A stretch of DNA of 64,000 nucleotides from an uncultured Syntrophaceae bacterium. Lineage in GTDB: Bacteria; Desulfobacterota; Syntrophia; Syntrophales; UBA2192. The notes under the pieces are model-generated. The model made no database searches, had not been told where the DNA came from, and worked only from the letters and a program-made list of their open reading frames with translations. The DNA lies in assembly GCA_964585095.1 (NCBI GenBank), contig CAZPCN010000012.1:3430-67429 (forward strand), given 5' to 3'. Both the position numbers and the translations under genes were made by a program. This document shows positions 2,822-62,550 of the stretch, one piece after another (position 1 is the stretch's first letter; every line of letters starts with the position of its first letter).

Positions 2822-2832
2822 GATTCAGCCGA

Positions 2833-3754: not shown

Positions 3755-3772
3755 AACAACTACCTCCCAAAC

Positions 3773-3850: not shown

Positions 3851-5507
3851 ATTTTTCCTTGACGATCACTTCCTGCACCTCGGCCCCCTCGAAGACATCC
3901 ATGACCTTCTGCAGCAGCGGATGGTTCAGGGCCTCCCGGCGAACCTGGTTGGCGCGGTTCTGGTTCGGGCCGTTTCTCGACGGGCCGTTGGCCTCGCCGG
4001 AACCGTTTTCAACGGTCTCCACGGCCAGTCGTACGGGCTGGCCGAAGAACTCCCGGGCCATCTCCTCGAGTTTTTCCCGCTCTGGTTTCTCGTCGAAGAA
4101 GTCGAGGAAGAGATAGCCCTTCGGGAACCCGAGCCGCAGCGTCCCGTCGACAAACCCGACCAGCCTGCCCGGCTCGATCTTCGCCCAGAGGGGCTGGTTT
4201 CTTCTTTTGACGAACTGCTTGAACTCCGCCCACTGCTCCCCGGATTCCTGCGGGGACGGCTCCCTGACGACGGAATCGTCGGACGCCCGATCGATCCCCG
4301 TTCTTTCAGAGGGCGGGACATAGGGTTTCCCCGGTGCGGGGCCGGCGGCGGGTCCCTGCCCGAGGCGCCTTTCGATCCCTTCCATGCGGGAGAGGATCTC
4401 GTCGACGGGAATCAGGGGCTCCTGCCAGGCCATCTTGACGGCCGTGAATTCCAGGACGAGCCGGGGGTTGACGCTCCTGCGGACCTCCTCCTCGCCGGCC
4501 AGGAGCACATCGAGCAGCCGCTGCAGCGTCTCCTGCGAGACGGGGGCGGCCTGTTGCGTGAGCTCGGCCGCCTCGTGGTCGGACAGGTCGAGCAAATCCC
4601 CCCCGCCCGCCGTGATCTTGACAAGCAGCAGGTTGCGGAAATGGGCAAGCATCCGCTCGTAGAACACCTTCAGGTCGGCCCCGGCGTAGAAGGCTTCGTC
4701 GATGATCTTCAGGCAGGCCGCGGCATCCCGGGCGAGGACGGCTCGGGAGAGAGCGAGGAGGTACTTCCGGTCGCCCATGCCCAGCAGGGCCTCCACGTCG
4801 GCATCGTGGATGTCGGTGCCGGCAAAGGAGATGGCCTGGTCGAGGATGCTCTGGGAATCGCGGAGGCTTCCCTCTCCGCCCTGGGCAATCCAGGCGAGGG
4901 CCTGGTCGCCCACCGTGATGCCCTCCCCCTCGGCGATCTTGCGCAGGGTAGCCGTGATCTCCTTGAGGGAGATGCGCTTGAACTCGTAGCGCTGGCAGCG
5001 CGAGAGGATCGTGGCGGGGATCTTGTGGGTTTCCGTGGTGGCAAAGACGAAGATGACGTGGGGCGGGGGCTCCTCGAGCGTCTTCAGCAGCGCGTTGAAG
5101 GCCTCCTTGGTGAGCATGTGCACTTCGTCGATGATGTAGATCTTGTAGCGCGACGACGAGGGGGAGAACTTCACGTTCTCCCTCAGCTCGCGGATCTCGT
5201 CGATGCCGCGGTTGGACGCGCCGTCGATCTCGTGGACGTCCATGGAGGAGCCGTCGGTGATCTCCCGGCAGTTCGAGCAGGCGTTGCAGGGTTTCTCGGT
5301 GGGCCCGTGCTCGCAGTTGAGGGCCTTGGCCAGGATGCGGGCCACCGACGTCTTGCCGACCCCGCGGGGGCCGCTGAAGATGAAGGCGTGGGCCACGCGG
5401 CCCAGGCGGATCGCGTTGCGCAGCGTCGTGACGACGTGATCCTGCCCGACCACGTCCTCGAAGACCTGGGGTCTCCACTTTCTGGCTAGGACTAAGTATT
5501 CCACCAT
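3849..5507 (-). CDS. dnaX: DNA polymerase III subunit gamma/tau
   Basis: YLVLARKWRPQ, GPRGVGKTS Walker A, IIDEVHML, TLEEPP, TILSRCQ. Confidence 0.97.
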   Translation of the reverse strand: MVEYLVLARKWRPQVFEDVVGQDHVVTTLRNAIRLGRVAHAFIFSGPRGVGKTSVARILAKALNCEHGPTEKPCNACSNCREITDGSSMDVHEIDGASNRGIDEIRELRENVKFSPSSSRYKIYIIDEVHMLTKEAFNALLKTLEEPPPHVIFVFATTETHKIPATILSRCQRYEFKRISLKEITATLRKIAEGEGITVGDQALAWIAQGGEGSLRDSQSILDQAISFAGTDIHDADVEALLGMGDRKYLLALSRAVLARDAAACLKIIDEAFYAGADLKVFYERMLAHFRNLLLVKITAGGGDLLDLSDHEAAELTQQAAPVSQETLQRLLDVLLAGEEEVRRSVNPRLVLEFTAVKMAWQEPLIPVDEILSRMEGIERRLGQGPAAGPAPGKPYVPPSERTGIDRASDDSVVREPSPQESGEQWAEFKQFVKRRNQPLWAKIEPGRLVGFVDGTLRLGFPKGYLFLDFFDEKPEREKLEEMAREFFGQPVRLAVETVENGSGEANGPSRNGPNQNRANQVRREALNHPLLQKVMDVFEGAEVQEVIVKEK

Positions 5508-5525
5508 GGCCCCGGTATTATATAA

Positions 5526-5628
<103 letters not shown>

Positions 5629-5634
5629 TTTTCA

Positions 5635-6855
5635 CTATACTCTTCCCGGACCGGAAGAGGCGAGGATTTTTTCCACATCCCCGCGGACGCTCGGGAGATC
5701 GCTGTCGATGACCTCGGCGCCCCGGCGGGCAAAGACGCTCATGTCCTTCAGGCCCGAGCCCGTGAGCATGAGAACAACCGAATCGTCCCCGCCGATCTTC
5801 CCCGCTGCCCGGAGCTTTCTTGCGGCGGCAAGCGGGGCGGCCGCAGCCGGCTCGACGAAATAGCCTGCGCGGGCGAGCCGGGCCTGGGCGTCGAGGATCT
5901 CCTCTTCCGTCACGTCCTCGGCGAGCCATCCGAACTGCCGGGCCTTGAGGACGATCTCGTCGCCTCCCGGGGGGTCGCCCGAGGTGATGGCCTCGGCCAC
6001 GGTTTCCTTCCCGGTCACGGGGACGATCCGGTCCCGGCCTTCCCGGATGGCCGAAACGACGGGGTTCACGTTCGCCGCCTGGACGACGATCATCCGGGGC
6101 AGGCGGTCGACGATCCCCGCCTCCTTCAGCTCCCGGTAGCCCTTGAAGATCCCCCGGATGTGCCCGCAGGCCGAGGTGGGCACGGCGATGAAGTCGGGGA
6201 CGCCCCCTTCGAGCTGCTCGACCATCTCGAAGGCCGTGAGCTTGTAGCCCTCCGTACGGACCGGGCCGTTCCCCGACACGACGCGGAGGCTGAGTCCCGC
6301 GGCAAGCCCCAGGACCTCCCGTTTCATCAGGGAGTAGTCGGGGGCGGCGACCCTCACCACCGTGGCCCCGTGGATGGCCATGGCGAGGATCTTTTCCGGC
6401 GGTGCGTAGCGGGGGACGAAGACAACGGCCCGAATCCCCGCGTGCGCCGCGTAGGCGGCGATGGAGTTTCCCATGTTTCCCGTCGAGATCGTGGCCGTGA
6501 CGGTTTCCCCCATCTGGCGGGCCATGGCCATCGTGGTGAGCGAGCCCCGGTCCTTGAAGCTCCACGTGGGGTTCATGGTCTCGTTTTTCAAGAGCAGCCG
6601 TCCGATCCCGGTGTGCCCCGCAAGGGCCTTGCCCGCCGGCAGAAGCGGCGTTCCGCCTTCGCCGAGGCTCAACGCCCCGTCGATCTCGACGGGGAGGAAA
6701 TCGGCGAATCGCTCCCAGAGGTGCCGGCCCGTCCTCACGCGGGCGTTGGCCAGCCCGCCGACGGCAACCTCCAGGGATTCGCCGTTATCGGCGAACTCCT
6801 CGATACGCTCGAAGGGGAAGACCTGGCCGGAAATGGTGGACAGGAGCCTATTCAC
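5635..6855 (-). CDS. Threonine synthase-like PLP enzyme (fold type II)
   Basis: LSLGEGGTPL, NPTWSFKDRG (PLP Lys), STGNMGNS, GYKLTAFE, VEPAAA, LTGSGLKD. Confidence 0.85.
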   Translation of the reverse strand: MNRLLSTISGQVFPFERIEEFADNGESLEVAVGGLANARVRTGRHLWERFADFLPVEIDGALSLGEGGTPLLPAGKALAGHTGIGRLLLKNETMNPTWSFKDRGSLTTMAMARQMGETVTATISTGNMGNSIAAYAAHAGIRAVVFVPRYAPPEKILAMAIHGATVVRVAAPDYSLMKREVLGLAAGLSLRVVSGNGPVRTEGYKLTAFEMVEQLEGGVPDFIAVPTSACGHIRGIFKGYRELKEAGIVDRLPRMIVVQAANVNPVVSAIREGRDRIVPVTGKETVAEAITSGDPPGGDEIVLKARQFGWLAEDVTEEEILDAQARLARAGYFVEPAAAAPLAAARKLRAAGKIGGDDSVVLMLTGSGLKDMSVFARRGAEVIDSDLPSVRGDVEKILASSGPGRV

Positions 6856-6881
6856 GTGTTGAACCGCACCCCGGGGCCCGG

Positions 6882-6921
6882 GAAAGAAAAACGGCGGTCA
6901 ACACCCGATCGCCGCCGTTTT
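6882..6921 (-). terminator. Intrinsic terminator after tRNA-Ser(GGA)
   Basis: Minus strand AAACGGCGG-N14-CCGCCGTTTTTCTTTC. Confidence 0.7.
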
Positions 6922-6927
6922 ATGTTC

Positions 6928-7022
6928 TGGCGGAGAGAGGGGGATTCGAACCCCCGGTGCACCTTTAAGGGGCGCACACACGATTTCCAGTCGTGCCCAT
7001 TCGGCCTCTCTGGCATCTCTCC
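6928..7022 (-). tRNA. tRNA-Ser (anticodon GGA)
   Basis: Acceptor GGAGAGA/TCTCTCC-G-CCA, anticodon arm CACGA-CTGGAAA-TCGTG, long variable arm, T-loop GGTTCGAATCC. Confidence 0.97.
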
Positions 7023-7222
7023 GCAATGTCCCGTATCAGCGAAGAGGGGCCCCCGTTGGGAGCCCTCCTTGCATTGGGCGTCTCTTACCAGTTTAGCCGC
7101 CGTTTGTCCATACCCTTCTTGCAGGGCAAAATGCGAAGCAAATCAGGGAAAAGGAAATGCCGAAACGGGCGTCAGCGGGGAGCAGGAAAAACCCGGCGCC
7201 AGCCGGGAAAAGGGCATAAAAA

Positions 7223-7317
7223 TGGCGGAGAGAGGGGGATTCGAACCCCCGTGAGAGCTGTTAGGCCCTCAAACCGATTTCGAGTCGGTCCCGTTATGAC
7301 CACTTCGGTATCTCTCC
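7223..7317 (-). tRNA. tRNA-Ser (anticodon CGA)
   Basis: Same acceptor stem, anticodon arm ACCGA-CTCGAAA-TCGGT, long variable arm, encoded CCA. Confidence 0.97.
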
Positions 7318-7332
7318 GCGTCTATGGACGAT

Positions 7333-7785
7333 TCATAATCGTTTTTCGCGGAAAAATCTACTCAAAATTTCGCCGCATTCCGCCGCCAGGACCCCGCCCG
7401 CGACCTCCACCCGGTGGTTGAGGCGGTCATCCTCCAGCACCCGGTAGAGGGATACGGCGGCGCCTCCCTTCGGGTCTGTCGCCCCGAAGACGAGCCGTGA
7501 AACGCGGGCGTGGACGATGGCCCCCGCGCACATGAGGCAGGGCTCGATCGTCACGTAGAGCGTCGTGCCCGCAAGGCGGTAATTGCCCGCCGCGGCGGCC
7601 GCCCTTCGCAGGGCCAGGACCTCGGCGTGGGCCGAGGGGTCGCTGAGCCCCACGGGCGCGTTGTGGGCCGAGGCGATGACCTCCCCGCCCCGGACGACGA
7701 CGGCGCCCACGGGCACCTCGCCCGCCTCCATGGCCTTTTGCGCCTCGGCGAGGGCAAGCCTCATGAACTGCTCGTCCCGATGCAT
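7333..7785 (-). CDS. tadA: tRNA adenosine(34) deaminase
   Basis: FMRLALAEA, GEVPVGAVVV, AHAE, TIEPCLMCAGA; start trimmed to MHRDEQ. Confidence 0.95.
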   Translation of the reverse strand: MHRDEQFMRLALAEAQKAMEAGEVPVGAVVVRGGEVIASAHNAPVGLSDPSAHAEVLALRRAAAAAGNYRLAGTTLYVTIEPCLMCAGAIVHARVSRLVFGATDPKGGAAVSLYRVLEDDRLNHRVEVAGGVLAAECGEILSRFFREKRL

Positions 7786-7875
7786 CGCAAATCCCCTGCT
7801 GGCTGCCGGGTTGGCAGCAAACTTGCTTTCTTTCAACTTGTTGACTATAAAGGGTTCTCCCGCGGGTGAAGTCTC

Positions 7876-8427
7876 ATGATATCCAAAAAAGCCCTGGTCC
7901 GATTCGTCCTCGCGTCCTGCGCCTTCCACGCGGCCGTCCTGGCGCTCGCGGGCCTGCTGATCTCGTCCGGCTCCCCGCTTCCCTTCGAGACTTTCACCGT
8001 GCGTCTGGCCGACGCGCCGGCAAACGCGCCCGACGACAGCCGAAAGGCGGTGATCAAAAAGGACCTGTCTCTTGACAGGCCCCACCGGGAGCCTGCCCCG
8101 GGCCCCGAGGAGACCGTTGACCTCACGAGCGCCTCGGGGAAGTACCGGGCCTATCTTCGAGCTCTGCGACAGAAAATCGAGGCCCTGTGGGCATACCCCC
8201 CGGATGCCTATTCGCGCAGCGAGACGGGGACGGCGGTGGTCCGCTTCTCCATCCAGAACGACGGGTCCCTGGCGGCAACGGACATCGTTTCGTCATCGGG
8301 GTCCGAATCGCTCGATCGCGGCGCTCTCGCCGTCGTCCAGGCCGCGGCCCCCTATGCGCCCTTACCGGATACCTTCAATCTTTCCACGTTGCACGTCGTG
8401 GCAAAGTTCGAGTATGAAATGGACTGA
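7876..8427 (+). CDS. TonB family energy transducer (N-terminal TM plus TonB-C domain)
   Basis: TM segment ending FHAAVLAL; WAYPPDA...GTAVVRFSI...SSGSESLDRGAL. Confidence 0.85.
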   Translation: MISKKALVRFVLASCAFHAAVLALAGLLISSGSPLPFETFTVRLADAPANAPDDSRKAVIKKDLSLDRPHREPAPGPEETVDLTSASGKYRAYLRALRQKIEALWAYPPDAYSRSETGTAVVRFSIQNDGSLAATDIVSSSGSESLDRGALAVVQAAAPYAPLPDTFNLSTLHVVAKFEYEMD

Positions 8428-43799: not shown

Positions 43800-44921
43800 A
43801 TGGAATTCAGTGTGAAGCGTGACGTTTTCCTGGGCGGTGTTCAGAGGACTCTGGGTATTGTGGACAGGCGCACGTCGATGCCGGTGCTGAACAATGTTCT
43901 CATCCGGGCCGAGTCCGAACGGATCCGCATCGTGGCGACGGACCGGGAAATCGGTCTCATTGCGGACTACGAGGCGAAGGTCATCAAGGACGGCGAGATC
44001 ACGCTTCCGGCCCGCAAGCTCTACGAGATGATCCGGGAAATCCAGGGCGAGGAGGTTCTCTTCAAGAAAGAGGATTCGAACTGGGTGGCGATCACTTGCG
44101 GGAAGGTCAACTTCCGGGTTCCCGGCATCCCGGCGGAGGAATTTCCGAAGATCATGGACGACGAGGAAGTTGGGTTCATCCGAATCGACGGGGCCATGAT
44201 CAGCGACATGATCAAGAAGACCTACTTCGCCATGTCCACCGACGAATCGCGGGTCAACCTCAACGGGGTCTACCTGAAGGCGGAACAGGAGCCGTCGGGA
44301 GGGGTTATCATGCGCATGGTGGCGACCGACGGACACCGCCTCTCCATCGTGGGCGCCGACCCGAAGGTGGAGCAGGTCATGGAACTCGACAAGGGAATGA
44401 TCATCCCCCGGAAAGGAATCACCGAAATCCGGCGTCTTGTCGAGGACAAGGAAGGCTCCGTCGAGATCGGGGTGAAGAAGGGGATGTGCGTGCTGAAGAA
44501 GGACGGCATCATCCTGAAAGTGAGCCTCATCGACGCCGAGTTCCCCGATTACAAGCGCGTCGTCCCGAAGGACAAGGGCACCGTGGTCGAACTGGAACGC
44601 GCGGCGGTTCTCCACGCGCTTCGCAGGATGAGCGTCATGGCCAGCGAGCGCTACAACGGCGTCCGGATCAAATTGCTGACGGACAAGATGGTCTTCAACT
44701 CCATCAACCCCGATGTGGGCGAGGCCAGCGAGGAAGTGGAGATCCAGTACCAGGAAGGCGACGTCGAGGTGGGTTTCAACGTCCGTTACCTCCTGGAGGC
44801 CATCGAGGCCGTCGACGAGGAAAAGTTCACCCTGGAGATCCGCAGCGGCCTCAGGCCCGCCATGGTCAGGCCGGCGCAGGATCCGAGCTACATGTGCATC
44901 GTCATGCCATTAAAGATTTAG
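43800..44921 (+). CDS. dnaN: DNA polymerase III beta sliding clamp
   Basis: MPVLNNVL, VATDREI, TLPARKL, AMSTDESRVNLNG, VATDGHRL, EFPDYKRV, GFNVRYL, IVMPLK. Confidence 0.97.
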   Translation: MEFSVKRDVFLGGVQRTLGIVDRRTSMPVLNNVLIRAESERIRIVATDREIGLIADYEAKVIKDGEITLPARKLYEMIREIQGEEVLFKKEDSNWVAITCGKVNFRVPGIPAEEFPKIMDDEEVGFIRIDGAMISDMIKKTYFAMSTDESRVNLNGVYLKAEQEPSGGVIMRMVATDGHRLSIVGADPKVEQVMELDKGMIIPRKGITEIRRLVEDKEGSVEIGVKKGMCVLKKDGIILKVSLIDAEFPDYKRVVPKDKGTVVELERAAVLHALRRMSVMASERYNGVRIKLLTDKMVFNSINPDVGEASEEVEIQYQEGDVEVGFNVRYLLEAIEAVDEEKFTLEIRSGLRPAMVRPAQDPSYMCIVMPLKI

Positions 44922-44960: not shown

Positions 44961-47387
<2,427 letters not shown>

Positions 47388-47525: not shown

Positions 47526-47667
47526 ATCCGTCAGGGGGCCTTGCACCCGGGCATTTTTGACCAGCCCGAAAAAGAGGAGTGACACGAATCTGCCGGACGG
47601 CAGATCATCCTTTCAGCTCCCCCCACGGAAGGGGGGAATTTTGTTTCCCGAAGGAGAGTCTTTTTTC

Positions 47668-50166
47668 ATGGAGCTCTATCAGAAGAACATCCCGGTGAAC
47701 ATCGAAGACGAGATGAAGAAGTCCTACATGGACTACGCCATGAGCGTCATCATCGGGCGGGCCATACCGGACGTGCGCGACGGGCTCAAGCCCGTCCACC
47801 GGCGCGCGCTGTTCGCCATGCACGAGATGGGCAACCGCTGGAACCGGCCCTACAAGAAGTCGGCCCGCATCGTCGGCGACATCATCGGTAAGTATCACCC
47901 CCACGGCGATTCCGCCGCCTACGACACGATCGTGCGCATGGCGCAGGACTTCTCGCTTCGCTACCCGCTCGTCGACGGCCAGGGCAATTTCGGCTCCATC
48001 GACGGCGACCCGCCGGCGGCCATGCGATACACGGAGATCCGGATGTCCCGGATCGCCGAGGAGCTGCTGGAGGACCTCGAGAAGAACACCGTCGACTTCG
48101 CTCCCAACTACGACGGCTCCATGGAGGAGCCCGTGGTGCTGCCCTCGAGGCTGCCCATGCTGTTGCTGAACGGCACCTCGGGCATCGCCGTCGGTGTCGC
48201 CACCAACATCCCGCCCCACAACCTGGGCGAGATCGTCGACGGCACGGTGGCCCTCATCCGCAACCCGGAGATCCCCGTCGAGGGGCTCATGAAGCACATC
48301 CAGGGGCCCGACTTCCCCACGGCCGGCTTCATCAACGGCCGCGACGGGATCCTGTCGGCCTACCGCACGGGCCGGGGCACCGTGCGCATCCGCGCGCGGG
48401 CCATGGTGGAGCGCGCCAACCGCACCGACCGGGAGAGCATCGTCATCACCCAGCTGCCCTACCTCGTGAACAAGGCGAGCCTCATCGAGAAGATCTCGGA
48501 CCTCGTCAAGGAGCGCAAGATCGAGGGCATCGCCGACCTGCGCGACGAGTCGGACCGCGACGGGATTCGCATCGTCATCGACCTCAAGCGCGACGAGGTA
48601 TCGGGGGTCATCCTCAACCAGCTCTTCAAGCACACCCAGATGGAGAGCTCCTTCGGGATCAGCATGCTCGCCATCGACGCCGGCCAGCCGCGCGTCATGA
48701 ACCTCAAGGATGTGCTCCAGCGCTTTGTCGATTTCCGCAAGATCGTCGTCACCCGCAGGACGATCTTCGAGCTCAACAAGGCCAGCGAGCGGGCCCACAT
48801 CCTGGCAGGGCTCATCACGGCCCTGGACAACATCGACGCCGTCGTGGCCCTGATCAAGGCCTCCGAGACCCCTCAGGCGGCGGCCGAAGGGCTCATGACG
48901 AAGTTCGGTCTCTCCGAGGCGCAGGCCAAGGCGATTCTGGAGATGCGCCTGCAGCGGCTCACGGGGCTCGAACGCGGGAAGATCCTCGCGGAGCACGCCG
49001 AGCTCACGGAACTCATCGCGAAGCTCAAGGGCGTTCTCGAGGACCCCCAGAAGGTCCTGGACATCATCGTGGAGGAGCTCCTGGACTCGAAGAAACGCTT
49101 CGGCGACGAGCGCCGCACGGAGATCGTCGAGTCGACGGAGGACATCAACATCGAGGACATGATCGTCGAGGAGGACATGGTCGTCACCGTGTCCCACCAG
49201 GGCTACATCAAGCGCAACGCCGCAAGCCTCTACCGGATCCAGCGCCGCGGCGGCAAGGGCAAGATGGGCATGACCACGAAGGAAGAGGATTTCGTGGAGC
49301 ACATCTTCATCGCCTCGACGCACCACTACATCCTCATCTTCACGAACCAGGGGCGCGTCTACTGGCTCAAGGTCTACCAGATCCCGCAGGCGGGACGCGC
49401 CGCCAAGGGCAAGGCCATCGTGAACCTCGTCAACATGAACCCCGGCGAGAAGGTGGCCGCCATCCTGCCCGTGCGGGCCTTCGAGGAGAACAAGTTCGTC
49501 GTCATGGCCACGAAGAAGGGCATCATCAAGAAGACGGAGCTTTCCGCCTACTCCAACCCCCGCACCGGCGGCATCATCGCCATCAACGTCGAGGCGGGCG
49601 ACGAGCTGATGGACGTCAAGCAGACCAACGGGACCCAGGAGCTCTTCATGGGCACCCGCAAGGGCATGGCCATCCGCTTCAAGGAGGAGGATGTGCGGGC
49701 CATGGGCCGGACGGCCACGGGGGTCATCGGGATCCGGATGGACGAGGACGATCACGTGGTGGGCATGGAGATCCTCACCGAGGGCAACTCCATCATGACC
49801 GTCTCCGAGCGGGGCTATGGCAAGCGCACCGAGATCGAGGAGTACCGGCTCCAGAGCCGCGGCGGCAAAGGGATCCTGAATCTCAAGACCACCCCGCGGA
49901 TCGGTCTCGTCTCGGGCATCCGCCAGGTGACGGGAAACGAGGACCTGATGCTCATCAGCGACTCGGGCAACATCATCCGCATCCGCGTCGGCGAAGTCCC
50001 CGTGCTGCATCGCGTCACCCAGGGCGTCAAGCTCATCGATCTCGCGGAAGGCGAGAACTTCTCCGGCATCGCCCGGGTGGAGCGCGAAACCGAGGCGAAG
50101 AACGGGGACGATGCCGCCGAGGACGAGACGCTCTTCGACGCGGAGGACAACGGCGGCGAGGCCTGA
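47668..50166 (+). CDS. gyrA: DNA gyrase subunit A
   Basis: [35 protein letters not shown], GyrA box QRRGGKG, beta-pinwheel repeats. Confidence 0.98.
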
Positions 50167-50793: not shown

Positions 50794-52776
50794 TCAATGC
50801 GGCTGGATCTTGCCGCGAACCTTCGCCCCCGGCAGGACCGTGGAGGGTACGGTCGGCCGGCTTACCCAGTTCGTCGTGTCAAGGGTGAAGGCCCGGCTCG
50901 TGTAGATCATGTAGCTGCGGCCGAACTCGATTGTCTTGAGGTTGCCGGCGGTCTTCGGCTTTGCCAGGATGAGGAACTGCATCGGCCGGTCGAAGCTGAA
51001 GATGAGTCCCACGTAGGGGTTGCCCGCGTACGGCCCGAACACGGCGTTGACGGAGCGGTCCCCGGCGGGGAGCTTGTCGAACCGGACCGTGTTGTAGCCC
51101 TTGCGGAAGGCGATCGAGGTCGGGACGACGATCTTCTCCATGTAGGAGACCGGGACGGCGGCGGGGGCGGCCTCCGAGACCTCCACGACATCGGGGTCCA
51201 CCTGTGCGCGGTAGCCGATCTTGAGTTTGTGGATGAAATACTTGCCCGCCTTCGAGACCTGCGAGGCGAACCTTCCCGCCGAGTCGGTGGTGTAGTCGCC
51301 CAGGACCTGCCCGAGTTCGTCCTTCACGGTGATGCTGACGCCCTCCAGCCCAGCGCCCTGCGGGAGTTCCTGCACGGTGCCGTTGATGAAGAACTCCGTC
51401 ACGGGACGCGGGACGGCCCCGTCCGGACCGTACTTGATAAGGACGGCATCCCAGAGGCCGAGGGACGGCCCGCTCATGGCACCGGCGGTCAGAGCGGCTA
51501 CATAAACGGCCCCTGTCGGGTCCAGGGCGATCCCGTAACCCCAATCCAGATCCGCCGTGCCGGTCAGGCGGGTATAGACCCTGCGGCCGTCCTCCGGTGC
51601 GAGACGGGACAGGAAAATATCGGCTCTGCCGAGAGGCGTCTGCCCGTCCAGTCCCCTGCCCGAGGCGGAGGGTTCCGTGACCCCGGTGACGTAGATGCTC
51701 CCTTCGGCGTCGACGGCGACCCCGTGGGCGGTGTCATGACCGTCCGTGCCGTATTGGTGTGTCCAGAGCAAAGCCAGGTTTCGATCGAATTTCGCGAGAA
51801 TGATGTCGTCGGCACCCGACGAGGTGTTTCCTTCGAAGTTTCCCTGCGTGGAGCCGGCGACGATGACGTTCCGGCTTCTGTCCACGGCGATGGCCAGCCC
51901 CTGGTCTTTATCGCTTCCCTTGTTCGGACCGCCCAGGGTCACCGTCGCCAGGGGCTCAAAATCGTAACTGAACTTGGCGACAAACAGCGACCCCTGCAGG
52001 TTGCCGGAAACGAGACCGGTGACGAACACGTTGGAGAAGCTGTTCGGGGATTCGACAGCCACCGCGTAAGCCGCAGTGCCTGTCGGGTTGGAAGCGACAT
52101 TGAACTGGGTCACCCAGTTCATCCAGTCCCCCTCGGAACTGAGCCGCATAAGAAAAGCTTCCGGAGTGGAGCGGGTGACCGCGGAGCTGCCGAATGTCCC
52201 GGTCGTCGATCCGGCCAGATAGATCATGCTGCTGGCGTCGGTTGCGATCCCGTTTGCGTAATCGTTTCCAGGTGTCCCGTGCTGCTTGATCCAGTTGACC
52301 GTCCCGCTGGCGGGATGGATCTTCGCCACAAAGATGTCCGTCGTGCCCTCGGCACCGGCGTTTGCATTCCGCCAGCCCTGCATCCCTCCGGGCATGGCCC
52401 CCTTCGTCCAGCCCGTCACATAAAGGGTGAGAAAGCCGGACGGCGATCCCAGGGCAACCCCCCCGATATTGTCTTCCGCCGATGAGCCGAATTGGCTGAC
52501 CCAGAGCAGCGCGCCGGAGGGATCGAACTTTGCGACGAAGATGTCCGTGCTCCCGCTGTTCGTGTTCGGCGTGGCCGGTGCCGGTGCGCTGAAAGCACCC
52601 ATGGTCATGCCTGCCACATAGACATTCCCCTCGGAGTCGGTCACGGTTTTCATCGCATAGTCGTAGTTGTCCGAGCCGAACTGCTTGATGTACAGCGGCG
52701 CGGTCTGGGCAAGAGCGGACGATGCGGCCAACAGCGCGAGCAGAACAACGGCCAGGACGATGGTGCGGGTTTTCAT
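50794..52776 (-). CDS. Secreted SBBP-repeat beta-propeller protein with C-terminal beta-sandwich domains
   Basis: Signal peptide MKTRTIVLAVVLLALLAASSALA; repeats DSEGNVYVAG, DASSMIYLAG, DRSRNVIVAG, DAEGSIYVTG, DPTGAVYVAA with DIFVAKF; then GTV...LEGVSITV...TTDSAGRF. Confidence 0.85.
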   Translation of the reverse strand: MKTRTIVLAVVLLALLAASSALAQTAPLYIKQFGSDNYDYAMKTVTDSEGNVYVAGMTMGAFSAPAPATPNTNSGSTDIFVAKFDPSGALLWVSQFGSSAEDNIGGVALGSPSGFLTLYVTGWTKGAMPGGMQGWRNANAGAEGTTDIFVAKIHPASGTVNWIKQHGTPGNDYANGIATDASSMIYLAGSTTGTFGSSAVTRSTPEAFLMRLSSEGDWMNWVTQFNVASNPTGTAAYAVAVESPNSFSNVFVTGLVSGNLQGSLFVAKFSYDFEPLATVTLGGPNKGSDKDQGLAIAVDRSRNVIVAGSTQGNFEGNTSSGADDIILAKFDRNLALLWTHQYGTDGHDTAHGVAVDAEGSIYVTGVTEPSASGRGLDGQTPLGRADIFLSRLAPEDGRRVYTRLTGTADLDWGYGIALDPTGAVYVAALTAGAMSGPSLGLWDAVLIKYGPDGAVPRPVTEFFINGTVQELPQGAGLEGVSITVKDELGQVLGDYTTDSAGRFASQVSKAGKYFIHKLKIGYRAQVDPDVVEVSEAAPAAVPVSYMEKIVVPTSIAFRKGYNTVRFDKLPAGDRSVNAVFGPYAGNPYVGLIFSFDRPMQFLILAKPKTAGNLKTIEFGRSYMIYTSRAFTLDTTNWVSRPTVPSTVLPGAKVRGKIQPH

Positions 52777-52936
52777 GGCTTCCCTCCTGAGGCGCCCAGC
52801 GGCTCCATGACGAGCGGGTGTGCGGGTGGTCACGACGGGAACGGGGCATTCATGCGGGAAAGGATCGGGGATGCGAGGCGGGGCGCCGGAGGCAGCCCCC
52901 GGGCCCGGGCGTCCGGGATCGGTCGGCTGCTCGGCT

Positions 52937-53033
52937 CGCCTGGCAGCCCTGCAGCCCTATCCCGCGTGTTCCCGGGACGTAGGCCATGAGGCTTTGCGCC
53001 CCATCCTTTCGGACGGTTTGCCCTTTTCAGGCG
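52937..53033 (-). ncRNA. Cyclic di-GMP-I (GEMM-I) riboswitch
   Basis: Minus strand CGCCTG-AAAA-GGGCAAACC-GTCC-GAAA-GGAT-GGGGCGCAAAGCC...GGGCTGC-CAGGCG: GNRA loop, conserved GGCAAACC and GCAAAGCC, P1 CGCCTG/CAGGCG. Confidence 0.9.
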
Positions 53034-53101: not shown

Positions 53102-53117
53102 TGGTACGGAATTTGCT
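53102..53117 (+). promoter_or_regulatory. Sigma-54 promoter upstream of the response regulator
   Basis: TGGTACG-GAAT-TTGCT with exact GG-N10-GC spacing. Confidence 0.8.
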
Positions 53118-53274
53118 AATTTGCACGGTGAAACCGATCGGTTGTGCATCACGGCCGCACCCGGTGCTTTCTCCGCGGGCTGCGGCGCGGGGCATCTCCA
53201 ATCCCGGAAGGCAGGTGGAAGATGAACCTGAGAGAATCGACGGCTGCACGATCTCCGATTGCAAGGGGAGGAGT

Positions 53275-53659
53275 CATGGTCCAGCGACCGAAAGTGCTCA
53301 TGATCGACGACAACAAGGAAATCTGTCGTCTGATGAAGGAATACCTCGAAAAAACGGGGAAATACGAAGTGACGACCTTCACCGACGCGAGAATGGGGGT
53401 CCGTTACGCCCAGATCGAGAGGCCCGACGTGATCCTGATGGATCTCATGATGCCGGACATGGACGGCACGGAAGCCGCCGAATACCTCCTCGATGACGAG
53501 GGGACCCGGACCATCCCCCTCATCTTCATCACGGCGGCGATCAAGAAGGACGAAGCGGAAGAGCGCCTCGGCCAGATACACGGCCACCCCATCCTGGCCA
53601 AGCCCGTCACCCCTGTCGAGGTGATGAACGAGATCGAAAAGATCCTCACCCTGACCTGA
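53275..53659 (+). CDS. Single-domain response regulator (REC)
   Basis: KVLMIDD, DVILMDLMMPDMDG (phospho-Asp), FITA, LAKP; GGAGGAG RBS. Confidence 0.93.
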
Positions 53660-53737: not shown

Positions 53738-56569
53738 TTACATTTTCATGACCGTGACGGCGTCCTCGAGGCTGATGACCCCCTGGAGCACCTTGTTGAT
53801 AGCGTCCTGCTTCAGCGGGCGGAAATTGCCGTCCCGCTCCGCGACGGTCTTGATCTCGGCCGCGTCGGCGCCCTTGAGGATCGCCTCCCGCAGCCCGTTG
53901 TCGTTTACGAGGATTTCGAAGAGGGCCGTGCGGCCCTTGAACCCCGTGTTCTTGCAGGCCGGGCAGCCCGCCCCGCGGAAGAACCGGCCGCCCGCCATCG
54001 ATTCCATGCCCAGGGAAGCCAGAACCTGCTCGGAGGGCTCGTAGGGTTCCCTGCAGGCGGGACAGATCGTCCGCACGAGCCTCTGCGCAATCGATGCCGA
54101 AAGGGCCGAGGCCAGCGGGAAGCGGTCCACCCCCATCTCGACGAGGCGGGCGATGGCGCCTGCCGCATCCGATGCCGGGAGGGTGCTGAGGAACCGGTGG
54201 CTCGAGAGGGCTGTCTGCACGGCAAGCGACGCCGACTCCCCGTCGCGGATTTCCTCGAGGTAGACCACGTCGGGGTCCTGCTTCAGGATCAGGCGCAGGT
54301 TCGCTGCCAGGGTCGCCCCGGCCGCCCGGTTGAATTCGATCTGGGTCACCCCCGCGATCGGGTATTTGACGGGGTCCTCCAGGGTGAAGATCTCCGCGTC
54401 GGGCGTCACCATCCGGCGGAGCATGGCGTACAGGGTGGTGCTCTTGCCGCTTCCCTCGGGGCCGGACACGACGACGAGCCCCTGCGGCTTCTCCAGGATG
54501 TCGCCGAGACTGTCGAGGTCCTTCGGGGAGAGGCCCAGCTGTTCCAGGCCGATGGAATTCGTGCTGAGATCCGTCAGGTGCAGGATGAGGCTTTCGCCGT
54601 GGATGCTCGGGATGGAGGAGACCTGGACGCTGATGTCCCGGTCCCCGACCTTCTCCACGAAGCGGCCCTCCTGGGGGACTCCGCGGACGCTCGAGTCGAT
54701 GTTGGCGATGTCCTTGACCCAGGTGATCACGGGGATCGACATGGACTTCGGCAGGTCCGGCAGGTCATGAGTCGATCCGTCGACGCGGAACCGGACGCGG
54801 ACGTTCTTCGTCTGCGGGGTGATGTGGATGTCCGTCGCTCCCTCGCGGACGGCCTGCGCGATCAGCGTTTCGATGAAGCGGTCCGCCGGGTCGCCGTTTT
54901 CGGGGCCTGAGGGCGCCGGGTTGGCGCGTTGTGACGCCGCGGCCGGCTGCTGGCGTGCCTCGGAGGAGTAGCTGCCGGCGGGCATGTCGTAGATGAGGCC
55001 CATGAGCCGGTCGAACTCGCGCTCGGTGCAGATCACCGGCGCAACCCCCTCTTCCGACTGCATCCTGAGCAGGTCGAGGGCGTAGCGATTGGTGGGGTCC
55101 GGCATGGCCACGACGAGGTGGCGGGCGGTCTTCCTCAACGGCGCTGCCTGGTACTTCCGGGCGAAATCCATGGGGATGAGCCTCGAGAGGCTCAGGTCGA
55201 CGGGGTACTTGTCGGGCAGATAGCGCTCGATCCGGAGCTGGTGGCTCAGGATGTCCACGATCTGGGAGTCCCGGAGGAACCCCTGCTGGACGAGAAGCTT
55301 GCCGAGCCGCAGCCCCGTATACCGCTGGGCCGCGAGGGCTTCCTCAAGCTGGCTTTCGTCGAGCAGCCGCGCTTCCATGAGCAGCTCGCCCAGCTTCTTC
55401 CACTGTCCGTCGACGACCTCCAGCTCCGTCGGCGCCGACTTTCCGGCCTCGAGCTCGGTGATGAACTCGGGGAAGTCGCCCTCGATCAGGGTCTGTTCCT
55501 TCGCCACCGATGCGGCCCTCAGGAGGATTTTCTCCAGCTCCGCCACGTTGCCCGGCCAGGTGTATTCGAGGAACCGGTCCATCACTTCCCGCGTGACGCC
55601 GTGGAGACCCTTGCGAAATTCCTGGTTGATGAGCTGGATGAAGTAGTCCACGAGCAGGGGGATGTCCTCCTTGCGCTCGCGAAGGGGCGGCACGTACAGG
55701 GTGACCACATTGAGACGGTAGTAGAGATCGTCCCGGAAGGTGCCTTCCTTGATCATTCCCCGGATGTCCCTGTCGGTCGAGGCGATGACCCGCGCGCCGA
55801 GCGGGAGCTTGTCACGGCCCCCGATGCGTTTGAATTCGCCCGTTTCGAGGACCCGCAGCAGGCGGGCCTGGAGGTTCAGGGGCAGAGCGGAGACCTGGTG
55901 CAGGTAGAGGGTGCCGTTGCCGGCCTCCTCGAATTTCCCGATCTTGCGGCTCGTGGCGCCCGTGTAGGACCCCTTTTCGTAGCCGAACAGCTCGGCTTCC
56001 AGGACCTGCTCCGCGAGGCCCTCGCAGTTGACGATTACGAAAGGCTCGTTCTTCGCCGTGAAATTGTGGAATGTCTTGGCCAGGAGCGACTTGCCCGTCC
56101 CCGTCTCGCCCAGGATGAGCACGGTGCGATCCTCGGGCCGGATCATCATGATCTGGTTGAAAAGAATGCGGACACGCTTGCCCTGGCCGATGAATTCCGG
56201 GAAGAGGACCTTCCCCTCCACCTTGCTCAGCAAGTCGCTGACCTGTTCGAAGACGACGTTGAACTCCTTCAGGTCGTCCCCCTTGCTCTTCGGCTTCCCG
56301 TTGCCCTGCCTCGACACGGCGGGGATGGATTTCATCTTCGCGATGAAGCTCTTCATCGGCTTCAGCAGGAGCCACGTGATGAGCAGCGCGCACAGGAAGG
56401 AAAACGCCCCGATCCCGATTCCCCACCATTTCAGGTACAGTTCCGGATTGGGGATCAGGTTCGTGTATTTCAGGATCTGGTGGGTCGTGATGACGGAAAG
56501 CAGGGCGATCCCGCCGAAGATGATCGGGACGAGGACGTAGAGACTGATGTTGAAGCGGGGGTGTTTCAT
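53738..56569 (-). CDS. Fusion: 2 TM, HAMP-like, sigma-54 activator AAA+ domain, MshEN, GspE/PilB-type ATPase (both ATPase domains degenerate)
   Basis: One uninterrupted 943-aa ORF: GETGTGKS, ELFGYEKGSYTGA, DLYYRLNV, WPGNVAEL; KLGELL...LAAQ...RLGKLLVQQG...LSHQ; ATDIHI, RFRVDG, PQEGR, GPEGSGKST, EDPV, QDPDVVYLEEIRD, CPAC x2. Confidence 0.88.
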   Translation of the reverse strand: MKHPRFNISLYVLVPIIFGGIALLSVITTHQILKYTNLIPNPELYLKWWGIGIGAFSFLCALLITWLLLKPMKSFIAKMKSIPAVSRQGNGKPKSKGDDLKEFNVVFEQVSDLLSKVEGKVLFPEFIGQGKRVRILFNQIMMIRPEDRTVLILGETGTGKSLLAKTFHNFTAKNEPFVIVNCEGLAEQVLEAELFGYEKGSYTGATSRKIGKFEEAGNGTLYLHQVSALPLNLQARLLRVLETGEFKRIGGRDKLPLGARVIASTDRDIRGMIKEGTFRDDLYYRLNVVTLYVPPLRERKEDIPLLVDYFIQLINQEFRKGLHGVTREVMDRFLEYTWPGNVAELEKILLRAASVAKEQTLIEGDFPEFITELEAGKSAPTELEVVDGQWKKLGELLMEARLLDESQLEEALAAQRYTGLRLGKLLVQQGFLRDSQIVDILSHQLRIERYLPDKYPVDLSLSRLIPMDFARKYQAAPLRKTARHLVVAMPDPTNRYALDLLRMQSEEGVAPVICTEREFDRLMGLIYDMPAGSYSSEARQQPAAASQRANPAPSGPENGDPADRFIETLIAQAVREGATDIHITPQTKNVRVRFRVDGSTHDLPDLPKSMSIPVITWVKDIANIDSSVRGVPQEGRFVEKVGDRDISVQVSSIPSIHGESLILHLTDLSTNSIGLEQLGLSPKDLDSLGDILEKPQGLVVVSGPEGSGKSTTLYAMLRRMVTPDAEIFTLEDPVKYPIAGVTQIEFNRAAGATLAANLRLILKQDPDVVYLEEIRDGESASLAVQTALSSHRFLSTLPASDAAGAIARLVEMGVDRFPLASALSASIAQRLVRTICPACREPYEPSEQVLASLGMESMAGGRFFRGAGCPACKNTGFKGRTALFEILVNDNGLREAILKGADAAEIKTVAERDGNFRPLKQDAINKVLQGVISLEDAVTVMKM

Positions 56570-56952
56570 GGATTCTCACCTTGTGTTACAGGGCAACAGG
56601 ATTACCACAGGCATCAGCCGGACCGTTCCCCGGACGGACACGCAACGGCCCCGGCCCCTTCCCGCGATCCATGACCGGGGGAAATAAGGAGGCGGCGAAA
56701 CGCTCTGTCCAGGCGCCTTGCACGATAACAAACCCGGCTGGTTTTGCAATACGGCACCAGTATGATTTCGTTCTACGAGAATAGTATGACTGCTTCCGTT
56801 TATCGGACTCGTTCTCCCTCAAATGGATCGCAGGGGTCACTAACAGGAGTCGCGAGAAGAAGTGAAGAGAGTATCCAGCGTCGCGCTCGAGGAACGAGCC
56901 TGTCACACATGGCGAGAATTACTGCACGAAATGTACCAAAAAACGTCTGTTT

Positions 56953-60698: not shown

Positions 60699-61115
60699 AT
60701 GAAGCCCTATAAAACTTTCGACCATACGGCCGACCTCGGTCTTACCGTCACGGGGCAGAGCGCGGGAGAACTTTACGCAAACGCGGCGGTTGCCGTTTTC
60801 GACATGATCACCGACCTCGGGCGCGTGGAACCCCGGGAGACCCGCCGGATCACCGTGGAGGGCGACAGCCCGGAGGATCTGATCATCAACTTCCTTCGCG
60901 AAATCCTTTACCTCTATAATGGGGAACGCTGGCTGCTCAGGGAAATCCGTGTCACGATGATCGGGGACACAGGGATCGAGGCCGAGGTCTTCGGGGAGCC
61001 CCTCGATCTGCAGAAGCACGAGATATGCAAAGAAATCAAGGCAGTAACCTATCACCAGGCCAGTGTGCGCAAGGTGCCGGGGGGCTGGGAGGCAAGGGTG
61101 ATCTTCGATGTCTGA
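60699..61115 (+). CDS. Archease (RtcB activator)
   Basis: YKTFDHTADLG, IKAVTYHQ, ARVIFDV; overlaps the rtcB start. Confidence 0.95.
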   Translation: MKPYKTFDHTADLGLTVTGQSAGELYANAAVAVFDMITDLGRVEPRETRRITVEGDSPEDLIINFLREILYLYNGERWLLREIRVTMIGDTGIEAEVFGEPLDLQKHEICKEIKAVTYHQASVRKVPGGWEARVIFDV

Positions 61116-62550
61116 CGTAAAGCTGCGCCGTCTCGACGAGTTCCGCTGGGAAGTGCCGAAGCAGGGCGCCATGCGCGTCCCGGGGATCATCTACGCCAGC
61201 GGGAAGCTCATGAAGGCCATGGGACAGGACGAAAGCCCGAAACAGGTGGCCAACGTGGCCCAGCTGCCGGGGATCGTGAAGAACTCGCTGGCCATGCCGG
61301 ACATGCACTGGGGTTACGGATTCCCCATCGGCGGCGTGGCCGCCTTTGACATGGAGGGCGGCGTCGTGTCGCCGGGAGGTGTGGGCTACGACATCAACTG
61401 CGGCTGCCGCCTCATGATGACGAACCTCCTCCGCGAGGACGTGCGGCCCAAGCTGGAGAAGATCGTCAACGCCCTCTTCCACCACGTGCCCTCGGGCGTG
61501 GGCTCGAGAGGGTCCCTCAAGCTGCCCCGGGCCGAAGAGAAAAAGGTCCTCGTCGAGGGGGCCCGGTGGGCCGTGAGCAACGGTTACGGATCGCAGGGCG
61601 ACCTGGACTCCATGGAGGACGGGGGCTGCCTTACCGGGGCCGACCCCGAGGCGGTCAGCGAGCGCGCCCTCGAGAGGGGGAAGGACCAGGTGGGCACCCT
61701 CGGGTCTGGCAACCACTTCCTCGAAGTCGAGGTGGTCGAGGAGATCTTCGACCGGGACGCGGCCGCCGCCCTCGGGATCGAGGAGGGCCGGGTGGCCGTC
61801 ATGGTCCACAGCGGCTCGCGGGGCCTCGGGCACCAGGTCTGCGACGACTACCTGGCCAAGCTGGTCAAGCACGTCGACCGGCTGGGGATCACCCTTCCCG
61901 ACAGGCAGCTTGCCTGCGCCTACATCCAGTCCCCGGAAGGACGCCAGTACCTCTCGGCCATGGCCTGCGCGGCCAACTACGCCTGGGCCAACCGGCAGAT
62001 GCTCATGCACTGGACGGGCGAGGCCCTCGAGCGCGCCCTCGGAATGAGCCCCCGCGACTTGGGCATGCGCCTCGTCTACGACGTCTGCCACAACATCGCC
62101 AAGATCGAGGAGCACGTCGTGGACGGCAAGCGGATGACCCTCTGCGTTCACCGCAAGGGGGCCACGCGCGCCTTCCCCCCGGGGCACCCGGCGCTGCCGG
62201 CGAAGTACCGCAAGACGGGCCAGCCCGTTCTGATCCCCGGTGACATGGGCACGGGCTCCTACGTGCTCGTGGGGACCGAGAAGGCCATGGAGCAGACCTT
62301 CGGGAGCACCTGCCACGGCGCGGGGCGCGTGCTGAGCCGGGCCGCGGCGATCAAGGCAAGCAGGGGCCGCGCGATCGGCCGCGAGATGGAGGACCGCGGG
62401 GTCCTCGTCATGGCCGCCGCCAAGGGCACCCTGGCCGAGGAGATCCCCGAGGCCTACAAGAACATCGACGAGGTCGTCAACGTCGTCCACGGCGCGGGGC
62501 TCTCCCGCAAGGTAGCACGGCTCAAGGCCATCGGCTGCATCAAGGGGTAG
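61108..62550 (+). CDS. rtcB: RNA-splicing/repair ligase RtcB
   Basis: MPDMHWGYGFPIGG, GYDINCG, GTLGSGNHF, HSGSRG, HNIA, HRKGA, STCHGAGR, EAYK. Confidence 0.97.
   Translation: MSDVKLRRLDEFRWEVPKQGAMRVPGIIYASGKLMKAMGQDESPKQVANVAQLPGIVKNSLAMPDMHWGYGFPIGGVAAFDMEGGVVSPGGVGYDINCGCRLMMTNLLREDVRPKLEKIVNALFHHVPSGVGSRGSLKLPRAEEKKVLVEGARWAVSNGYGSQGDLDSMEDGGCLTGADPEAVSERALERGKDQVGTLGSGNHFLEVEVVEEIFDRDAAAALGIEEGRVAVMVHSGSRGLGHQVCDDYLAKLVKHVDRLGITLPDRQLACAYIQSPEGRQYLSAMACAANYAWANRQMLMHWTGEALERALGMSPRDLGMRLVYDVCHNIAKIEEHVVDGKRMTLCVHRKGATRAFPPGHPALPAKYRKTGQPVLIPGDMGTGSYVLVGTEKAMEQTFGSTCHGAGRVLSRAAAIKASRGRAIGREMEDRGVLVMAAAKGTLAEEIPEAYKNIDEVVNVVHGAGLSRKVARLKAIGCIKG

Follow-up and report, generated by a model that had tools for sequence, protein, structure and literature searches.

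A conserved Syntrophales protein family that joins a sigma-54 activator domain to an MshE/PilB-type motor ATPase, with both ATPase sites probably inactive

Introduction

What might a protein do that unites the AAA+ domain of a sigma-54 activator, or bacterial enhancer-binding protein (bEBP), with a motor ATPase of the PilB/GspE type, when residues for ATP hydrolysis have been replaced in both? This question is raised by a gene in a 64,000-nucleotide stretch of contig CAZPCN010000012.1 (assembly GCA_964585095.1) from an uncultured Syntrophaceae bacterium, a stretch that is referred to below as the window. An earlier note on this DNA had described the gene product as a membrane-anchored double pseudo-ATPase, a scaffold and not an enzyme. 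In the analysis reported here, the fusion proved to be a conserved family that is under purifying selection and is known from one bacterial order, the Syntrophales.

Results

Domain architecture of the fusion protein

The layout given by the earlier note, in which one continuous open reading frame (ORF) encodes two transmembrane (TM) helices, an AAA+ domain that is not followed by a helix-turn-helix (HTH), MshEN and a complete PilB/GspE ATPase, was borne out by searches with Pfam and NCBIfam models and by hydropathy analysis (Table 1). The gene begins with ATG, and AAGGTGAG is present a few bases 5' of this codon. The hydropathy profile of the protein has exactly two TM peaks, both within residues 1–70, and the two helices are separated by an outside loop of ~17 aa; TM helix 1 is also kept in the fused and split relatives described below. 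The linker that follows TM helix 2 had been called HAMP-like, a designation that we dropped, given that no Pfam HAMP match was obtained in aa 1–129 at E ≤ 1 and that the AlphaFold model of the TM-proximal linker is a helix-loop-helix with a predicted local distance difference test score (pLDDT) below 50.

The activator part was matched by Pfam Sigma54_activat (PF00158) over aa 127–291 (5e-56) and by AAA_lid_14 (PF25601) over aa 297–378 (3.6e-20), with ZraR and NtrC1 among its PDB matches at ~1e-61 to 1e-63; the structures of FleQ and VpsR were also among the PDB matches of the fusion protein. No HTH_8 domain was identified by Pfam in the fusion protein after the AAA+ lid. Toward the C-terminus, Pfam T2SSE (PF00437) matched aa 560–937 (8e-94), and the best PDB match of the PilB part was Thermus thermophilus PilF (6f8l; aa 383–938, 7e-119). 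The NCBIfam PilB profile was covered over positions 1–561 of 564 by aa 392–940 at 413 bits, which is below its cut-off of 675 bits, and the GspE equivalog was covered to near full length but at 417 bits, again below its cut-off (630 bits).

Between the two ATPase modules lie the tandem MshEN-like motifs that had been noticed at aa 392–444 and that here passed the curated c-di-GMP_motif model for binding of cyclic di-GMP (c-di-GMP), NF053729, with 60.4 bits against a cut-off of 38 and with all 53 positions of the model matched. When tested as regular expressions against the motif definition from work on Vibrio cholerae MshE (PMC5013675), motif 2 fitted the published relaxed pattern and motif 1 deviated from it only at position 10. 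The window protein is therefore predicted to bind c-di-GMP.

Conservation and distribution of the family

A search of 5.8 billion proteins identified more than 35 full-length clusters (at 90% identity) that were 79–93% identical to the window protein, as well as a second group (P0045–P0048) with 44% identity and with equal length and Pfam architecture; these groups are referred to as clades A and B. The relatives were derived from NCBI, JGI, ENA and Logan assemblies, and the named ones were metagenome-assembled genomes (MAGs) of the Syntrophales. In an exhaustive HMMER scan of 1.84 billion representatives at 50% identity, the full fusion was found in exactly two clusters. The earlier note had asked for a query of this architecture across genomes. 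In our census, which employed one genome per GTDB species and the family-specific N-terminal module as the query, the linker signature was found at 40 loci. The genomes with the fusion represent at least 19 species, of which 15 belong to clade A and four to clade B, so that it is not a one-off.

Pairwise ratios of nonsynonymous to synonymous substitution rates (dN/dS) were 0.03–0.2 in the TM/linker, bEBP, MshEN, N2D and C-terminal domain segments of both clades, and whole-gene values were 0.08–0.16. The sole exception was the comparison of the window with L009 over N2D, where the ratio of 1.33 is not meaningful because dS was 0.01. The low-complexity linker (aa 536–560) was looser, with ratios of 0.12–0.58. 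Although the two clades are only 44% identical, little or no variation was seen between them in the TM helices, the cytoplasmic linker, both P-loops, the segment ELFGYEKG[ST][FY]TGA, the zinc cysteines, the catalytic Glu position and the arginine of DGR. Within these, ELFGYEKG was invariant in 13 of 13 fusion sequences, and an L1 loop of the form G[AST][FY]TGA was present in every fused and split relative. The L1 loop of the window protein, GSYTGA (aa 200–205), is within the natural range, given that enhancer-binding proteins of Desulfovibrio vulgaris with assigned sigma-54 regulons carry the variants GSFTGA and GAYTDA (PMC4641369).

Several sequences at the margin of the family deserve mention in their own right. 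The proteins of ~1000 aa that ranked next in the exhaustive search were rejected as further bEBP–PilB fusions, as they proved to be tandem T2SSE–T2SSE, T2SSF–T2SSE, multi-MshEN PilF-like or tandem bEBP proteins. Unusual large ATPase fusions ranked just below the family were P0121, P0122, P0124, P0125, P0132 and P0049; they included tandem T2SSE–T2SSE proteins of ~1000 aa, T2SSF with a double T2SSE (P0125), and cases in which Sigma54_activat occurs two or three times (P0049 and P0132, the latter also with FHA). On contig CAWEPT010000022.1 (L013/L014), two copies of the fusion gene were present ~6.6 kb apart, with a sigma-54 promoter motif after each, and the second copy (L014) shifts frame by +1 within the low-complexity linker and stops at aa 611. 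This pair could represent a tandem duplication with decay, or a long-read indel or an assembly artefact, and the truncated clusters P0041–P0044 may be similar to the second copy.

Catalytic residues lost and retained in the two ATPase modules

All of the residue changes that the earlier note had listed in the two ATPase modules were present when they were checked by alignment to PDB reference structures, with the sites of the PilB part numbered after Geobacter metallireducens PilB (PilB_Gm; PMC5424180). In the bEBP part of the window protein, Walker A (GETGTGKS) is present and both arginine fingers are kept (R279 and R285, in FRDDLYYRL). Walker B reads LYLHQ (aa 221–225, with H224 and Q225) in place of the LFLDE of the references and split relatives, and sensor II reads GNVAELE (A343) in place of GNVRELE. 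In the PilB part, Walker A (GPEGSGKS) is intact, including its Lys, the atypical Walker B (VYLEEIRD) retains the catalytic E773, and the zinc tetracysteine site (C836, C839, C869 and C872) is kept and is invariant across the family alignment. Replaced in this part are the first N2D arginine finger (R271 of PilB_Gm to Q649, yRVS to VQVS), the second (R286 to H664, VLRLLD to LILHLTD), the Asp-box Glu (E357 to K735, EDPVE to EDPVK) and the second His of the His box (SSH...STLP), where, of the two histidines H413 and H420 of PilB_Gm, the first is kept as H791 and the equivalent of H420 is P798 (STLH to STLP). In PilB_Gm, R271 and R286 are arginine fingers that sense the gamma-phosphate, E357 coordinates Mg and H420 contacts the gamma-phosphate (McCallum et al., PMC5424180), and the two arginine fingers and the Asp-box Glu were described there as completely conserved across PilT-like ATPases.

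Comparison among the clades and the split relatives showed that these losses differ in part between clades A and B. The split bEBPs have canonical motifs throughout (GETGTGKEL, GAFTGA, LFLDEIGDMP, AATN, FRxDLxYRLN and GNVREL), as do the split MshE-like proteins (IRAST, VLRLLD, GPTGSGK[ST], EDPVEY, GE[IT]RD and TGH...STVHTNDA). In clade A, the bEBP Walker B is HQ or NQ and sensor II is Ala, with both arginine fingers kept, and the PilB part has Q, V or L at the first N2D arginine, H or N at the second and K or R at the Asp-box Glu. In clade B, the bEBP Walker B D[ED] is kept, the second arginine finger is L or F and sensor II is M or T (R in P0048); the Asp box of the PilB part is EDPVE as in the split forms, the second N2D arginine is N (R in P0048) and the first His of the His box is deleted. 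Thus, the second arginine finger of N2D is replaced in all fusion members except P0048. At the second position of the His box, clade B has Q and most of clade A has also lost the His, although P0017 keeps it, and Walker A has K to R in two fusion members. The replaced positions differ among close relatives (Q/V/L, H/N, K/R and P/Q/H). Such a substitution pattern would be expected if selection for hydrolysis had ended when the genes fused or shortly thereafter.

Taken together, both ATPase sites of the fusion are probably hydrolysis-dead, with ATP binding predicted to be retained at both. The earlier designation as a scaffold and not an enzyme fits the combination of lost invariant catalytic residues with dN/dS ≤ 0.2 in both ATPase modules (bar the one N2D pair). 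In some source annotations, relatives of the fusion are labelled as an active sigma-54 activator, as TadA or as PilB. Because the fusion fails the catalytic hallmarks of both families and scores below the PilB and GspE equivalog cut-offs, it should not be annotated as any of these.

Origin from genes of a type IV filament cluster

The split relatives (L027–L047) have the N-terminal module, comprising two TM helices and the VF.QV[ST][DE]LLSKVE linker, in proteins of 444–474 aa. Their hosts are Desulfosarcina, Desulfosarcinaceae and Desulfobacteraceae MAGs and one Syntrophaceae MAG. The split protein is a complete sigma-54 activator with a C-terminal Fis-type HTH (HTH_8 in L031), and almost all of these loci also have an MshEN+T2SSE gene of its own ~1.25 kb upstream on the same strand. 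The product of the latter is 44–49% identical to the PilB part of the fusion, as compared with 36–38% for most ordinary PilBs. In the cluster of L031 (Table 1), the AAA_22 ATPase is ExeA/MshM-like, the platform gene is T2SSF and the start of the activator gene overlaps the stop of the platform gene. A TGGCA[TC]-N6-TGC motif with the correct spacing for sigma-54 was found 170–350 nt after the activator gene and before the prepilin gene in 15 of the 19 split loci. Given this position amid a filament cluster and before a sigma-54-type promoter and a prepilin gene, the unfused activator resembles PilS/PilR in its apparent role, but as a single membrane-anchored component, and would drive the sigma-54-dependent pilin gene.

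As intact split versions of both parts are neighbours in a pilus/type II secretion-like cluster, we conclude that the fusion very probably originated when a pilin-gene activator was joined to the MshE-type motor ATPase of the same cluster. The junction is at aa ~380–390 (nt 55394–55436), with the MshE-like part starting a few residues before the first KLGE motif, so that a whole MshE-like protein stands in place of the activator's linker and Fis-type HTH. The order of the fused parts could have been obtained by tandem duplication of the segment with the motor, platform and activator genes, followed by deletion. In a neighbor-joining tree of the PilB parts, the fusions of clades A and B formed one group beside the split MshE-like group; the tree has long branches and is without support values, and we took it as consistent evidence and not as proof. 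It points to a single fusion event behind both clades.

The earlier note had reasoned that homologs always found as two separate genes would indicate a one-off, decaying fusion. Split, catalytically intact neighbours do occur in the Desulfobacterales, but the fusion itself is conserved in the Syntrophales. Fused and split forms were found together in no genome of the GTDB-species scan, which weakens the earlier suggestion that the fusion poisons active bEBP or PilB hexamers, insofar as hexamers of the same family are meant.

Table 1. Features of the fusion gene, its surroundings in the window and the L031 cluster (window coordinates except for L031).
Feature	Position	Strand	Remarks
Fusion coding sequence, 943 aa + stop	53738..56569	-	single uninterrupted ORF
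TM helix 1, aa ~8–30	56480..56548	-	hydropathy window centres aa 14–24; AlphaFold2 helix 10–36
TM helix 2, aa ~48–69	56363..56428	-	hydropathy window centres aa 55–68; AlphaFold2 helix 42–80
Cytoplasmic linker, aa 70–122	56204..56362	-	signature GDD[IL]K..VF.QV[ST][DE]LLSKVE; invariant alignment columns
Sigma-54 activator AAA+ and lid, aa 123–378	55436..56203	-	Pfam, PDB alignments
MshEN_N c-di-GMP unit, two 24-aa motifs with 5-aa spacer, aa 392–444	55238..55396	-	NF053729
MshEN C-terminal subdomain, aa 447–530	54980..55231	-	Pfam PF05157, 2.9e-17
Ala/Pro/Gln-rich low-complexity linker, aa 531–560	54890..54979	-	length varies among relatives; AlphaFold2 pLDDT < 50
PilB/GspE N2D domain, aa 561–675	54545..54889	-	DGR Arg R636 kept; Q649 and H664 replace arginine fingers
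PilB/GspE C-terminal ATPase domain, aa 676–943	53741..54544	-	Pfam, PDB alignment
Candidate sigma-70-type promoter of fusion gene	56722..56749	-	TTGCAA, 16 nt, TGT-TATCGT; inferred from conservation alone
Stand-alone CheY-like receiver gene	53273..53659	+	Response_reg 6.8e-22 (Pfam); convergent with fusion gene; also in clade A loci
Candidate sigma-54 promoter TGGTACGGAATTTGCT	53102..53117	+	GG-N10-GC, ~155 nt 5' of receiver gene
c-di-GMP-I riboswitch	52939..53032	-	RF01051, 67.5 bits, full model; leader of ORF 50794–52833 (-)
L031 cluster	194-7988 (of L031)	+	PilQ-like secretin, AAA_22, MshE-like, GspF/PilC-like, TM-bEBP-HTH, prepilin

Promoters and gene neighbourhood

The fusion gene appears to be monocistronic. 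Upstream of it, a TTGCAA-16 nt-TGT-TAnnnT element is present at a conserved position in clades A and B, and this candidate sigma-70-type promoter was not called by the consensus promoter scan. A sigma-54 promoter before the fusion gene was rejected on the grounds that the conserved TGG[TC]GCCGTATTGCA, which overlaps the sigma-70-type candidate, has GG-N9-GC spacing and that its GG is absent in clade B. Separately, an element of the form TCATACT-N8-TATTGCAA at 56740–56766 (-), with equivalents in L005 and L001, is conserved across the 44%-identity clades in leader DNA that is otherwise unalignable; it could be an operator for a further regulator besides the -35 box.

In clade A, the gene order around the fusion is conserved, with an S1-domain gene and a YbjQ-like gene on one side and the convergent receiver gene, the SBBP-repeat gene, gyrA, gyrB and dnaN on the other. 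In clade A, the TGGTACGGAATTTGCT motif class is at an equal position in 15 loci, where it stands out as conserved while the intergenic DNA around it varies; this motif-based candidate for a sigma-54 promoter of the receiver gene was not found in clade B loci. The gene that follows the riboswitch, ORF 50794–52833 (-), encodes a protein of 679 aa, likely secreted, that has SBBP beta-propeller repeats and a CarboxypepD_reg-like domain. Of eight clade A loci tested, seven had the riboswitch, whereas no tested clade B or split locus did. Clade B has other neighbours, among them a radical SAM gene and a major facilitator superfamily transporter. The one neighbour common to both clades, a DUF4124-glutaredoxin gene at a distance of no more than a few kb, was set aside as uninformative. 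A tblastn search with the L031 cluster proteins detected no genes for a pilus or for secretion in the 64-kb window, and no platform, pilin or secretin genes within ±10 kb of the fusion in clade A or B loci.

In the segment 42218–50166, the genes gyrA (47557–50166), gyrB (44970–47387) and dnaN (43800–44921), all on the (+) strand, were assigned by translation and by synteny with L005, and since they are only a few kb away the fusion gene is probably near the replication origin. On its other side, at 60.7–62.5 kb, is an RtcB RNA ligase gene (61108–62550 (+); Pfam RtcB 1.6e-180), with an archease gene expected just 5' of it by synteny with L005; in Escherichia coli, rtcB is under the control of sigma-54 and RtcR. 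An Rfam scan of the window also identified a bacterial small signal recognition particle RNA at 5527–5624 (-) and two tRNA genes of ~92 nt at 6931–7022 (-) and 7226–7317 (-).

Discussion

A possible role in holding sigma-54

In view of the above, we tentatively read the fusion as a hydrolysis-dead, membrane-tethered scaffold that would bind nucleotide and c-di-GMP and engage sigma-54 unproductively, a reading that we favour over each alternative while giving it somewhat less than an even chance. The following sequence of events would be compatible with it, although we consider this specific manner of holding sigma-54 to be on the doubtful side. ATP would still be bound at both sites, and c-di-GMP would be bound at least in clade A, without hydrolysis. 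The PilB-like module would provide a DNA-independent platform for hexamerisation as a substitute for enhancer DNA, and its assembly or conformation would be set by c-di-GMP at MshEN and by an input sensed through the TM/linker module. The bEBP ring might then be locked in an ATP-like state, comparable to that of PspF E108Q, a hydrolysis-defective constitutive hexamer with ATP-dependent engagement of sigma-54–RNA polymerase (PMC4132715). Its L1 loops, which we infer to be capable of binding sigma-54, would engage region I of the latter, and promoter melting would not be completed. The net effect would be that of a membrane-tethered, c-di-GMP-gated holder or antagonist of sigma-54–RNA polymerase, and the targets tuned in this manner would be sigma-54-dependent genes, for example the neighbouring receiver gene. 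The strongest form of the idea, a natural "Walker-B trap" bEBP ring built on a dead PilB-type hexamer and serving as a membrane-anchored, c-di-GMP-gated anti-sigma-54 factor that would keep sigma-54 or its holoenzyme in an unproductive complex of the ATP state, is in our opinion unlikely.

It is important to note that a number of observations weigh against a scaffold of this kind. The AlphaFold2 model of the whole protein, which was built from a 13-sequence family alignment, had a mean pLDDT of 60 and a predicted template modelling score of 0.33 and was too poor for assessment of domain packing. To our knowledge, it is not established for any bEBP that a membrane-tethered ring reaches promoter-bound holoenzyme or sequesters enough sigma-54. 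Position 10 of MshEN motif 1 is Arg where the published relaxed motif has G, A or S, and clade B fails the published-pattern regular expressions for both motifs, while still passing the curated model; as such, c-di-GMP control may not be family-wide, and binding by clade B is doubtful. No functional partner common to the clade A and clade B neighbourhoods was found. The riboswitch and the sigma-54 promoter lend the clade A neighbourhood an association with c-di-GMP and sigma-54 that would suit our reading but, being neighbours in clade A only, they could reflect plain synteny.

Alternative explanations

Misassembly and pseudogene decay are excluded as general explanations, given the many independent assemblies, the two clades and the low dN/dS values. 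An artefact or dying gene, whether a chimera, a two-gene read-through or a decaying pseudogene, would suit P0041–P0044 and the second copy, L014, which appear truncated or frame-shifted in the linker, but we regard it as having next to no chance of explaining the family: an uninterrupted ORF with the identical junction recurs in the genomes of 19 species and in dozens of assemblies that are independent of one another and come from four sources, and full length has been kept by two clades at 44% identity with the whole-gene dN/dS given above. Also very improbable is a true double motor, in which each module would hydrolyse ATP by means of unconventional residues. The window protein does have the catalytic Glu of PilB and the Walker A lysine of each module, and both domains are under strong purifying selection; nevertheless, the two arginine fingers and the Asp-box Glu that are completely conserved across PilT-like ATPases have been replaced, as have the DE of Walker B and the Arg of sensor II in the bEBP part, and the variability of the replaced positions among close relatives, some of which have the Walker A K to R change, is as expected without selection on catalysis.

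More serious consideration is due to two other functions. The fusion could be a regulator of a pilus or secretion machine, in which the dead MshE-like module would dock on a GspF/PilC-type platform or enter active PilB/MshE hexamers and, in a c-di-GMP-responsive manner, block or gate the assembly of filaments, with the bEBP as an add-on for membrane-proximal oligomerisation or regulation. This would suit a PilB part that descends from a filament-cluster motor of the type IV kind and in which the c-di-GMP motif, Walker A and zinc cysteines are kept by purifying selection, and there is a precedent in Myxococcus xanthus PilB, which is reported to signal independently of pilus assembly (PMC5544727). 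We nonetheless consider it unlikely, since genes for a platform, pilin or secretin are absent from the surroundings of the fusion, both in the window and in clades A and B, and since it leaves the invariance of the L1 loop across clades of 44% identity unexplained. That invariance, together with the retained Walker A and, in clade A, the arginine fingers, would be accommodated by a still-positive, HTH-less sigma-54 activator that would work from the membrane as FlgR and CtcC do from solution, using ATP binding, or residual hydrolysis in some clades, on a small regulon such as the adjacent receiver gene, with the PilB-like module as a c-di-GMP sensor. Supporting this possibility are the Walker B DE kept in the clade B member P0045 and in L023, the conserved sigma-54 promoter that adjoins the fusion in clade A, and the finding that PspF E108Q, by ATP binding alone, makes the holoenzyme active on pre-melted DNA (PMC4132715). 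However, hydrolysis is required for DNA melting on native templates (PMC4132715), clade A has neither of the two acidic residues of Walker B nor the Arg of sensor II, clade B is without one arginine finger and, in all but P0048, the sensor II Arg, and the neighbouring sigma-54 promoter is absent from clade B loci. We rank this activator slightly below the pilus or secretion regulator, and retain the sigma-54-engaging scaffold as our provisional reading.

Comparison with known systems

The control of pilin genes by PilS/PilR and sigma-54 in Pseudomonas, Geobacter and Myxococcus resembles the unfused ancestor type in that an activator with a Fis-type HTH is located inside a filament cluster, and an enhancer-binding protein with a pili regulon has been assigned in D. 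vulgaris (PMC4641369). The ancestor type differs from PilS/PilR in being one-component and membrane-anchored, without a receiver domain or separate kinase, and the window protein is additionally without the HTH and the hydrolysis residues and is located outside a pilus cluster. With V. cholerae MshE, G. metallireducens PilB and T. thermophilus PilF, the fusion shares the series MshEN_N, MshEN_C, N2D and C-terminal domain, the tandem 24-aa motifs and the tetracysteine site. Unlike these motors, it has replaced arginine fingers, Asp-box Glu and His-box His, falls below the equivalog cut-offs, is without platform or pilin neighbours and has gained an N-terminal membrane-anchored bEBP domain.

PspF E108Q is like the fusion in having Gln at the catalytic Glu position of a bEBP AAA+ domain. 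It was made in the laboratory by a point mutation in an activator that is soluble and binds DNA, whereas the change in the fusion is natural and is accompanied by D to H, sensor II R to A, the membrane anchor and the lack of an HTH. PspF itself is controlled negatively by PspA. FleQ, FlrA and VpsR are bEBP-type regulators that tie c-di-GMP to surface and biofilm genes and that bind c-di-GMP on the AAA+ domain itself. These regulators are soluble and have DNA-binding domains, whereas the receptor of the fusion is a separate MshEN module acquired through gene fusion. In M. xanthus, the nucleotide- and c-di-GMP-bound state of PilB is reported to be read out as an exopolysaccharide signal, independently of pilus assembly (PMC5544727, PMC6957770). 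That protein is still an active motor encoded in a pilus locus, in contrast to the window protein, which appears to be signal-only. FlgR and CtcC are bEBPs without a DNA-binding domain that are active ATPases with receiver domains; common to them and the fusion is a sigma-54 AAA+ domain that acts without an HTH, but they have neither a membrane anchor nor a second ATPase-like module. bEBPs without a DNA-binding domain are also the subject of PMC7482065.

The earlier note knew of no described protein with this architecture, and our search of the full-text literature on MshEN with sigma-54, on pseudo-ATPase PilB and on transmembrane or HTH-less bEBPs likewise produced no description of the fusion family. 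Nor was a description of the TM-bEBP-HTH_8 activator type found in the literature. The architecture and the double pseudo-enzyme appear to be new. All constituent domains are well known, and the fusion is not a categorically new system.

The fusion family provides a natural case of two motor ATPases turned pseudo-enzyme, for which the intact unfused relatives allow a side-by-side comparison, and those split relatives in turn define a previously unremarked membrane-anchored, one-component sigma-54 activator within type IV filament clusters of sulfate reducers. If the tentative reading is true, a pilin-gene activator and a pilus motor would have been recycled into a double pseudo-enzyme that controls sigma-54 in a way for which no description exists as yet, and the holding of sigma-54 would constitute a new route linking c-di-GMP to sigma-54 transcription in syntrophic anaerobes.

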